Of a stretch of DNA of 64,000 nt, positions 63,498 through 63,587 are shown in pieces. The translations under genes were made by a program, and so were the position numbers. Every line of letters begins with the position of its first letter. Position 1 is the stretch's first letter. The notes beneath the pieces are model-generated. The model was not told where the DNA came from. It saw nothing but the letters and a program-made list of their open reading frames with translations, and searched no databases. This DNA comes from a virus. The stretch covers positions 117,466 to 181,465 of the IMG/VR virus record IMGVR_UViG_3300045988_076685. One strand, 5' to 3'.

Positions 63498-63587
63498 CAT
63501 ACGGAGTAGGATTCGAACCCACGTTGTTCAACTCTCGTCTCTGTAGGTTTTGGAGACCTACCCTTTCGACCACTCAGGCATCCGTAC
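63498..63587 (-). tRNA. tRNA with Trp anticodon (CCA) on a type-II, Ser-like body, G73
   Basis: Acceptor GUACGGA/UCCGUAU, Ser/Tyr-style D arm ccu-gaguggucgaa-agg, anticodon arm (g)uaggu-CUCCAAA-accua(c) identical in loop to bacterial tRNA-Trp, 20-nt variable region, T arm gugggUUCGAAUccuac. Confidence 0.55.

Follow-up and report, generated by a model that had tools for sequence, protein, structure and literature searches.

The 64,000-nucleotide stretch of viral DNA analyzed here (positions 117,466 to 181,465 of IMG/VR virus record IMGVR_UViG_3300045988_076685; hereafter the window) carries at 63498-63587, on its minus strand, a transfer RNA (tRNA) gene that combines a class-II body with the CCA anticodon of tryptophan (Trp). 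It is a genuine, conserved phage tRNA gene, beyond chance, because the same locus is present in 13 related contigs and because the RNAalifold consensus of 18 members of its family folds into a cloverleaf in which 14 of 20 pairs show compensatory changes. The usual classification reserves the class-II body in bacteria for tRNAs specific for leucine (Leu), serine (Ser), tyrosine (Tyr), and selenocysteine (Sec). Judged by its sequence, the window gene belongs to an old and widespread phage family and quite probably encodes a functional elongator tRNA that has a class-II scaffold, reads UGG, and would be charged with Trp by the host TrpRS. Trp charging is proposed because the CCA anticodon, G73, and a purine at position 1 paired with U72 are shared with the family and with class-I phage Trp tRNAs.

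A tRNA-Trp(cca) gene was called by ARAGORN at 63497-63587 on the minus strand, and the Rfam tRNA model (RF00005) matched 63498-63587 with 51.9 bits (E = 3.7e-9) and an 18-nt insertion in the variable region. The gene, its parts, and its immediate neighbors are as follows:

63498..63587, minus strand: whole tRNA gene, 90 nt, class-II body, anticodon CCA, G73 (ARAGORN and Rfam RF00005)
63581..63587, minus strand: acceptor 5' strand GUACGGA, forming G1.U72, U2-A71, A3-U70, C4-G69, G5-C68, G6-C67, and A7-U66
63562..63578, minus strand: class-II D arm with a 3-bp stem (CCU/AGG), an 11-nt loop GAGUGGUCGAA, G13.A22, and extra bases following G18 G19
63544..63560, minus strand: anticodon arm UAGGU-CUCCAAA-ACCUA with a 7-nt loop
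63523..63543, minus strand: variable region CAGAGACGAGAGUUGAACAAC, 21 nt, whose sole hairpin is a 3-bp GAC/GUU stem with a GAGA loop
63506..63522, minus strand: T arm GUGGG-UUCGAAU-CCUAC with G51.U63 (Rfam alignment)
63498..63505, minus strand: acceptor 3' strand UCCGUAU and discriminator G73 (sequence and Rfam)
63592..63664, minus strand: tRNA-Phe(GAA), 4 nt upstream of tRNA-Trp, opening a tight Phe-Trp-Lys unit
63417..63489, minus strand: tRNA-Lys(UUU), starting 8 nt downstream of tRNA-Trp

U8 and G9 lie between the acceptor and the D arm, G26 follows the D stem, the anticodon corresponds to plus-strand TGG at 63551-63553, and direct reading of the sequence indicated that the CCA 3' end is not encoded. 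The acceptor/T geometry is 7/5, with a 7-bp acceptor and a 5-bp T stem that both covary in the family. The original prediction, made from the sequence alone, had described a Trp anticodon arm (uaggu-CUCCAAA-accua), a type-II D arm, a length of about 90 nt, G73, and packing within 4-8 nt of tRNA-Phe and tRNA-Lys, all of which were recovered by direct reading, the ARAGORN call, and the Rfam alignment. Its variable region of about 20 nt was right in length (21 nt) but does not form a solid Ser-like extra arm, the 3-bp hairpin having a folding energy of -0.2 kcal/mol, no better than shuffles. The single-sequence minimum free energy (MFE) structure (-24.8 kcal/mol, z = -0.8) is not the cloverleaf (-19.4 kcal/mol); since the MFE of one tRNA is uninformative, the fold was judged by covariation across relatives.

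The 13 related contigs that carry the same gene at the same locus comprise the GenBank fecal phage fragment MT835539.1, where the class-II tRNA-Trp gene directly follows tRNA-Phe, and 12 IMG/VR contigs of 106-225 kb. The loci share a syntenic Arg-Phe-Trp-(Lys)-Asn-Glu-Ser-Gln array, in which the Phe-Trp adjacency is kept throughout. Over the 14 lineage loci, the tRNA-Trp gene has a mean identity of 94.5%, compared with 85-93% for the neighboring Phe, Glu, Ser, Gln, Lys, and Asn tRNAs and 61% for the 150-nt 3' flank. Substitutions preserve pairing: the 1-72 pair is A-U in eight members and G.U in six, 2-71 is U-A or U.G, and 51-63 is G.U or A-U. These comparisons strongly suggest that purifying selection acts on the tRNA-Trp gene of the lineage, which is more conserved than the neighboring tRNAs.

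Beyond the lineage, family members were collected with a scan pattern that specified a class-II D loop (GARYGG), the loop CUCCAAA, 20-35 nt, and then GGTTCGAATCC. The pattern fixes the anticodon loop, one T loop, and one D-loop type and leaves the acceptor, discriminator, anticodon stem, and T stem free, so that its counts are minimum values and the columns of the anticodon loop cannot serve as independent evidence. In IMG/VR, 84 stretches matched, 81 of which were called tRNA-Trp (82-96 nt) and came from very diverse large phage contigs; the same scan over bacteria and archaea (one genome for each of 185,579 species, 596 Gb) yielded only 33. The nonredundant family set consists of class-II tRNAs with CCA, U72, and G73 (n = 64; 55 from IMG/VR, 7 from multi-tRNA arrays in metagenome-assembled genomes [MAGs], the window gene, and locus L001). 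U72 was used to define this set, so that its constancy is not independent evidence; the members sit almost wholly in large phage tRNA arrays. When stem pairs were tallied over the 64 members, 78 of 84 were fully paired, the other six failed in at most five sequences, and up to six pair types occurred per position. The 13-22 pair is G.A in 50 members and G.U in 14, the last base of the variable region is C (opposite G15) in 61, and the anticodon stem carries G30-C40 in 61 and U31-A39 in 63. The window tRNA has every family feature: class-II D arm, variable region of at least 12 nt, CUCCAAA, U72, G73, and a place in a phage array. Among cultured phages, BLAST searches of GenBank, which have poor sensitivity with short tRNA queries, gave matches in two Caulobacter phages, CcrColossus and CcrPW, and in several phages of Brevundimonas but nowhere else; the gene is annotated there as plain "tRNA-Trp". 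Full-text literature searches, which cover few subscription-journal papers, found no description of a class-II phage tRNA-Trp; as an architecture the family is thus apparently undescribed, although the genes themselves are already in GenBank.

The bacterial determinants of Trp identity are G73, A1-U72, and C34 C35 A36, and for the rice mitochondrial tRNA-Trp, G73 with G1-U72 is listed (PMC9976931). The window tRNA has C34 C35 A36 in a 7-nt loop (CUCCAAA), and its first pair is G1.U72 rather than A1-U72. Across the 64 family members, this pair is A-U in 51 and G.U in 13, and G73 is present in 63, a base that suits Trp and Ser identity alike. Class-I Trp tRNAs from the same arrays (n = 7) have A-U or G.U at 1-72 in six cases (G.U in three) and G73 in six, and the T stem GUGGG/CCUAC of the window tRNA occurs in 31 of 64 class-II members and four of seven class-I phage Trp tRNAs. 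Leu and Tyr tRNAs at the same loci all have A73, and G73 counts as an antideterminant for both LeuRS and TyrRS of E. coli (PMC9976931). The body departs from class I in its 3-bp D stem with G13.A22 and its 21-nt variable region. Titles cited in PMC9976931 report conversion of tRNA-Gln and initiator tRNA-Met to Trp identity, which, as far as titles go, implies that other bodies can be made into Trp acceptors.

Several observations weigh against Trp charging. In E. coli and B. subtilis, G2-C71, G3-C70, G4-C69, G5-C68, and A9 act as minor to strong Trp determinants (PMC9976931), of which only G5-C68 is matched in the window tRNA, the other positions being U2-A71, A3-U70, C4-G69, and G9; this point is softened by the class-I phage Trp tRNAs of these arrays, which also lack G2-C71. 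No support was found for acceptance of a class-II body by TrpRS, and the window tRNA bears features used by SerRS (class-II D arm and loop, C11-G24, G30-C40, G73, and the 21-nt variable region), some serylation being possible. In L001 and L012, T-loop position 54 is C instead of U. A second Trp tRNA or a phage TrpRS may also lie beyond the 64-kb window; a look through the 20 largest open reading frames (ORFs) of the window revealed no synthetase gene.

Two alternatives invoke SerRS, whose recognition depends chiefly on the extra arm and G73 and does not involve the anticodon (PMC9976931). One is ambiguous charging by TrpRS and SerRS, with low-level Ser beside Trp at UGG, in line with partial identity sets for both enzymes on the window tRNA. 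The other, raised in the original prediction, is charging by SerRS through the class-II body and G73, so that a deliberate or toxic missense decoder would place Ser at UGG; it draws on the Ser-type D arm and loop, C11-G24, and G30-C40, and on the existence of Ser-bodied CCA tRNAs with G1-C72, G2-C71, and G73 as solitary bacterial chromosomal genes. Largely the same arguments count against both. At the same loci, G1-C72 is present in 46 of 50 Ser tRNAs and G2-C71 in 45 of 50, but the window tRNA has neither, G1-C72 is absent from all 64 family members, and G2-C71 occurs in eight; C2-G71, an antideterminant against E. coli SerRS (PMC9976931), is found in half of the family. The extra arm of the window tRNA is barely paired (about 0 kcal/mol) and partly deleted in two sister phages. 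Exclusive serylation would moreover not explain why U72, G73, and the Trp-type anticodon stem are so strictly conserved, and strong purifying selection together with the class-I Trp tRNAs in some arrays suggests ordinary Trp decoding rather than dual charging. Dual charging is accordingly rated as unlikely, and missense decoding of UGG as Ser as quite unlikely.

The extra arm and the origin of the body bear on the same question. Most family members have a clean extra-arm hairpin of 3-8 bp, often with a GAAA-type loop, and the window lineage has GAC-GAGA-GUU between purine-rich single strands; in L005 and L006, a 7-nt loss covers the hairpin loop and one strand. An arm under selection for recognition by SerRS should not decay in this way, and the extra arm looks dispensable in the window lineage. 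The D arm of the window tRNA is nearly identical to that of the tRNA-Ser(GCU) of the window, except for a swapped 10-25 pair, but overall identity between the two tRNAs is 60%, which argues against a recent duplicate with a mutated anticodon; descent from any window Ser, Leu, or Tyr tRNA by recent duplication was rejected (identity at most 60%). The proposal in the original prediction that a Ser/Leu body was remoulded to Trp decoding therefore agrees with a Ser-like body bearing Trp elements, but not as a recent event within this genome. A UUGA in the variable region was considered as a mimic of the Gln anticodon and discarded, since it lies outside the hairpin loop, has a chance expectation of about 7%, and is lost in L015.

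Ser acceptors with a CCA anticodon form a separate class (n = 18), with G1-C72 in 18 of 18, G2-C71 in 15 of 18, and G73; 14 of the 18 came from the genome collection, mostly as the lone tRNA in the stretch (Pelagibius, Agrobacterium, and Salinarimonas isolates). Those in bacterial genomes are candidate Ser-inserting decoders of UGG. Both alternatives of the original prediction, a Trp decoder on a remoulded body and a UGG-to-Ser decoder, would therefore occur in nature, in different molecules, and the window tRNA falls into the Trp-type class. Examples of Ser-body CCA tRNAs are:

L094, 1918-2007: Pelagibius sp.
L097, 2592-2681: Agrobacterium sp., chromosome 2
L102, 5270-5362: Salinarimonas soli
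L096, L099, L100, L101, L106, L107, L109, L114, L117, and L122: further cases in bacterial genomes and MAGs

These tRNAs have G1-C72, G2-C71, G73, a well-paired extra arm, and often an encoded CCA end, and are the only, or nearly the only, tRNA in their stretch.

A further alternative is that the RNA is mainly a nondecoder, either a decoy or sponge that occupies a host nuclease targeting tRNAs or some other tRNA-like RNA with a role outside translation. Phage tRNAs are reported to counter tRNA-cleaving defenses (e.g., PMC11555353), and the scaffold is unlike that of the host class-I Trp tRNA; however, the complete covarying cloverleaf, intact 7-nt anticodon loop, standard T loop, and 7/5 geometry, the ordinary decoders beside it in the array, and the conserved identity elements, needless for a pure decoy, make this very improbable.

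The window is a block devoted to replication and nucleotide metabolism, encoding NrdD, enzymes of NAD salvage, helicases, a DnaB-like protein, and a ligase, and its large ORFs, all on the minus strand, read well in the standard code. TGA terminates about 10 of the 36 largest, and read-through of TGA or TAG in the window brings almost no ORF gain. In MT835539.1 (locus L132), between 25 and 50 kb, ORFs of at least 100 amino acids cover 8-53% in the standard code and 90-100% with TAG as a sense codon; at 24000-50000 on its plus strand, up to 64 in-frame TAGs occur per ORF, CAG is underrepresented, and the stop codons in use are TGA and TAA, so that this relative is heavily TAG-recoded. Because of this ORF coverage, the in-frame TAGs, the depletion of CAG, and the ORFs ended by TGA, the lineage is concluded to be TAG-recoded (code-15-like), with TGA a genuine stop. 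A tRNA(CUA) is encoded at 1260-1332 of L003, a locus of the same lineage.

The original prediction had noted that the anticodon is one nucleotide away from UCA and had pointed to the recoding of UGA in some large gut phages. Within the window lineage this link did not hold: the anticodon, left free in the first scan, was CCA in 14 of 14 members, not complementary to a stop codon in any of them, and neither UCA nor CUA variants were found at the locus among the 14; TGA read-through brought no gain in the window, and many ORFs of MT835539.1 end in TGA. Elsewhere the link has some substance, in the form of UCA sister tRNAs in contigs that look TGA-recoded (see below). A last alternative is that UGA is read as well as UGG, by a Hirsh-like misreading through an altered D arm and hinge, for stop recoding. 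In its favor, G24A and A9C near the D-arm hinge let tRNA-Trp(CCA) read UGA (PMC13092985), and the class-II core alters the hinge. Against it, about 10 of the 36 largest window ORFs terminate at TGA with almost nothing added by read-through, MT835539.1 recodes TAG and not TGA, and loci with the CCA form of the family showed no specific gain from TGA as a sense codon; this alternative is extremely improbable.

The preferred reading thus remains that of a Trp-charged elongator on a class-II body. The tRNA would be transcribed within the Phe-Trp-Lys polycistron, excised by RNase P, and trimmed at its 3' end, and the CCA end, not being encoded, would be added by the host CCA-adding enzyme. The A36-A37-A38 context makes i6A37 modification likely, as in other readers of UNN codons. 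Host TrpRS would then charge the tRNA, which would supply Trp at UGG in phage translation. One candidate reason for the scaffold is descent from a phage scaffold whose arm has a recognition role; another is escape from nucleases or factors that target the host class-I tRNA-Trp.

Sister tRNAs that read stop codons were collected with the same pattern but the loop CUUCAAA (UCA; IMG/VR and metagenomes) or CUCUAAA (amber). Seventeen distinct class-II UCA tRNAs with a Trp-type acceptor (U72, G73) were obtained, all labeled SeC by ARAGORN; another T-loop variant tried for them (GGTTCGAGTCC) matched only Leu(CAA) tRNAs. The UCA sisters are:

L123, 7260-7354, minus strand
L124, 57-149, plus strand
L127, 3997-4090, plus strand
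L130, 1069-1165, plus strand
L131, 11110-11202, minus strand
L135, L143, L145, L146, L148, L153, L155, L163, L166, L168, L178, and L181: further UCA sisters

The contigs carrying them look TGA-recoded: the median gain in ORF coverage is +0.15 with TGA as sense compared to +0.05 with TAG, and with TGA as sense the longest ORFs grow from 518 to 1099, from 260 to 970, and from 677 to 1270 amino acids. As an experimental precedent for Trp charging, all 13 phage tRNA(UCA)s assayed in extracts of E. coli incorporated Trp (PMC12636597). Sixteen of the 17 UCA sisters have a longer extra-arm hairpin with UCCAA in its loop (GUCCAAA, UUCCAAC, and similar), in 13 distinct arms with different stems. The motif, found in one of 64 CCA members and none of six Ser-type UCA tRNAs (Fisher's p 8e-15, on sequences that are not phylogenetically independent), is a copy of U33-C34-C35-A36-A37 of tRNA-Trp. 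Likewise, four related Gln-like class-II CUA suppressors have YUGA, the Gln anticodon plus A37, in extra-arm loops (UUGA, CUGA, CUGA, and UUCUGAAC) on different stems:

L188, 6128-6194: Gln-like CUA suppressor
L191, 2481-2546: Gln-like CUA suppressor
L193, 5396-5460: Gln-like CUA suppressor
L197, 3527-3593: Gln-like CUA suppressor

One tentative reading is that the class-II scaffold of phage Trp tRNAs serves as a platform in which the extra arm points toward the synthetase and can stand in as a second, surrogate anticodon arm. If so, TrpRS and GlnRS, which read the anticodon, could charge tRNAs that in fact decode a stop codon; the window tRNA would be the sense-codon form of the platform, unarmed or decayed, and its family would be raw material for code-changing tRNAs. 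Phage TrpRS:tRNA pairs exist (2025 preprint, PMC12636597, the text of which does not contain "variable arm", "variable loop", or "type II"). A screen for HIGH/KMSKS motifs of a TrpRS gene near the UCA sisters, a weak test, found nothing.

Compared with known systems, the window tRNA and its family resemble the canonical bacterial and phage class-I tRNA-Trp(CCA) in CUCCAAA, G73, A1-U72 or G1.U72, G30-C40, and U31-A39, and the window tRNA shares the T stem GUGGG/CCUAC with G51.U63 with class-I phage Trp tRNAs of the same arrays. They differ in the class-II D arm, in a variable region of 12-26 nt instead of 4-5 nt, and in G9 or U9 instead of A9, and in the window tRNA the 2-71 and 3-70 pairs are not G-C. 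The nearly identical D arm and loop (relative to the window tRNA-Ser(GCU)), G73, C11-G24, and long variable region are reminiscent of bacterial tRNA-Ser, whereas the lack of G1-C72 and G2-C71, the CCA anticodon, the short or unpaired extra arm, and 60% identity set the window tRNA apart. Unlike tRNA-Sec, with UCA, the bacterial 8/5 geometry, and a 6-bp D stem, it has CCA, 7/5, and a 3-bp D stem.

Nematode noncanonical V-arm-containing tRNAs (nev-tRNAs), attributed to Hamashima et al. (2012, 2016), are reportedly eukaryotic and charged according to their body (Leu) and not their anticodon. Like them, the window tRNA combines a class-II body with the anticodon of a class-I amino acid; unlike them, it has identity elements that follow the anticodon (Trp) and it is carried by phages. 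Opal-suppressor tRNA-Trp(UCA) is said to have been described in TGA-recoded phages by Borges et al. in 2022. Such tRNAs (PMC12636597) resemble the window tRNA in being phage-borne and Trp-type, and the class-II UCA sisters share acceptor type, T stem, and scaffold with its family; unlike the sisters, it has CCA, comes from a lineage that recodes TAG and not TGA, and has no UCCAA loop in its extra arm. Allo-tRNAs and other irregular tRNAs of bacteria and phages (Mukai et al. 2017, PMC5389517) share its long V arm, G73, and non-Ser anticodon and were likewise mined from metagenomes, partly from phages; in contrast to their 8/4 or 9/3 geometry, Sec-like D arm, and inferred Ser acceptance (PMC5389517), the window tRNA has 7/5 geometry and a Trp-type acceptor end.

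The fetched loci also contain long-armed versions, with a class-II-like D arm, of Lys, Thr, His, Cys, Val, Met, Ile, Asn, Pro, Gln, Glu, and Arg tRNAs, a sample biased in that every locus was chosen for a class-II tRNA. Examples are:

L017, 7746-7833: long-armed tRNA-Lys
L023, 2709-2795: long-armed tRNA-His
L077, 9531-9614: long-armed tRNA-Cys
L004, 3221-3310 and 3320-3402: two long-armed tRNA-Thr

In discriminator and first pair they agree with short-armed tRNAs of the corresponding isotype, for example in U73 of Cys tRNAs, C73 of His tRNAs, and C1-G72 with A73 of Pro tRNAs; Asn and Glu have the same discriminator in long and short versions, and Thr and Lys agree less strictly. As far as these elements tell, identity in long-armed phage tRNAs follows the anticodon and not the body. 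The tRNA-Asn(GUU) of the window (36713-36794, minus strand, 82 nt) has a class-II-like D arm, a CCGAAAGG hairpin in its variable region, and G73 as in short Asn tRNAs, and is 72% identical to the neighboring tRNA-Tyr(GUA) (36174-36258, minus strand), which suggests a Tyr-type body converted to Asn.

Other observations concern the surroundings of the array. A tRNA-like gene at 63907-63990 (minus strand, Rfam 52 bits) has normal acceptor, D, and T arms and a 19-nt anticodon loop, UUUUAUAAUAGGUCAUUUC; relatives lie at 3011-3095 in L001 and 3397-3478 in L012, with small length changes in the U run, and ARAGORN labels the copies Tyr(ata), Stop(tta), or '???'. A weak Rfam tRNA at 63068-63139 (minus strand, 35.7 bits), missed by ARAGORN, has acceptor-stem mismatches and a UUGUGAG loop with, by eye, anticodon GUG (His). 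At 62414-62574, just downstream of tRNA-Gln, an AT-rich stretch of about 140-160 nt, in which no ORF or RNA family was identified, shares 95.7% identity with Lak megaphages of Prevotella (Lak-A1, A2, and C1), the rest of the 1.6-kb query being unmatched. Rfam searches at E <= 1 over 60500-64000 returned only tRNAs and weak chance matches, with no ribozyme beside tRNA-Trp. A transfer-messenger RNA (tmRNA) gene lies at 43940-44272 (minus strand), with the tag peptide ARVINMTPAYQAAA (ARAGORN).

A class-II phage family with Trp identity elements, together with long-armed versions of other isotypes, breaks the rule that confines the class-II body to a few amino acids, which implies that tRNA body class and amino-acid identity are separable in nature. 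For annotation, the consequence is that UCA sisters are labeled SeC by ARAGORN and that isotype-specific models may flag such genes as mismatches, and genetic-code engineering may profit, these bodies being unlike those of the host. The findings also raise the question of how code-changing phages keep their stop-reading tRNAs charged, which the copies of sense anticodons in the extra arms make testable.

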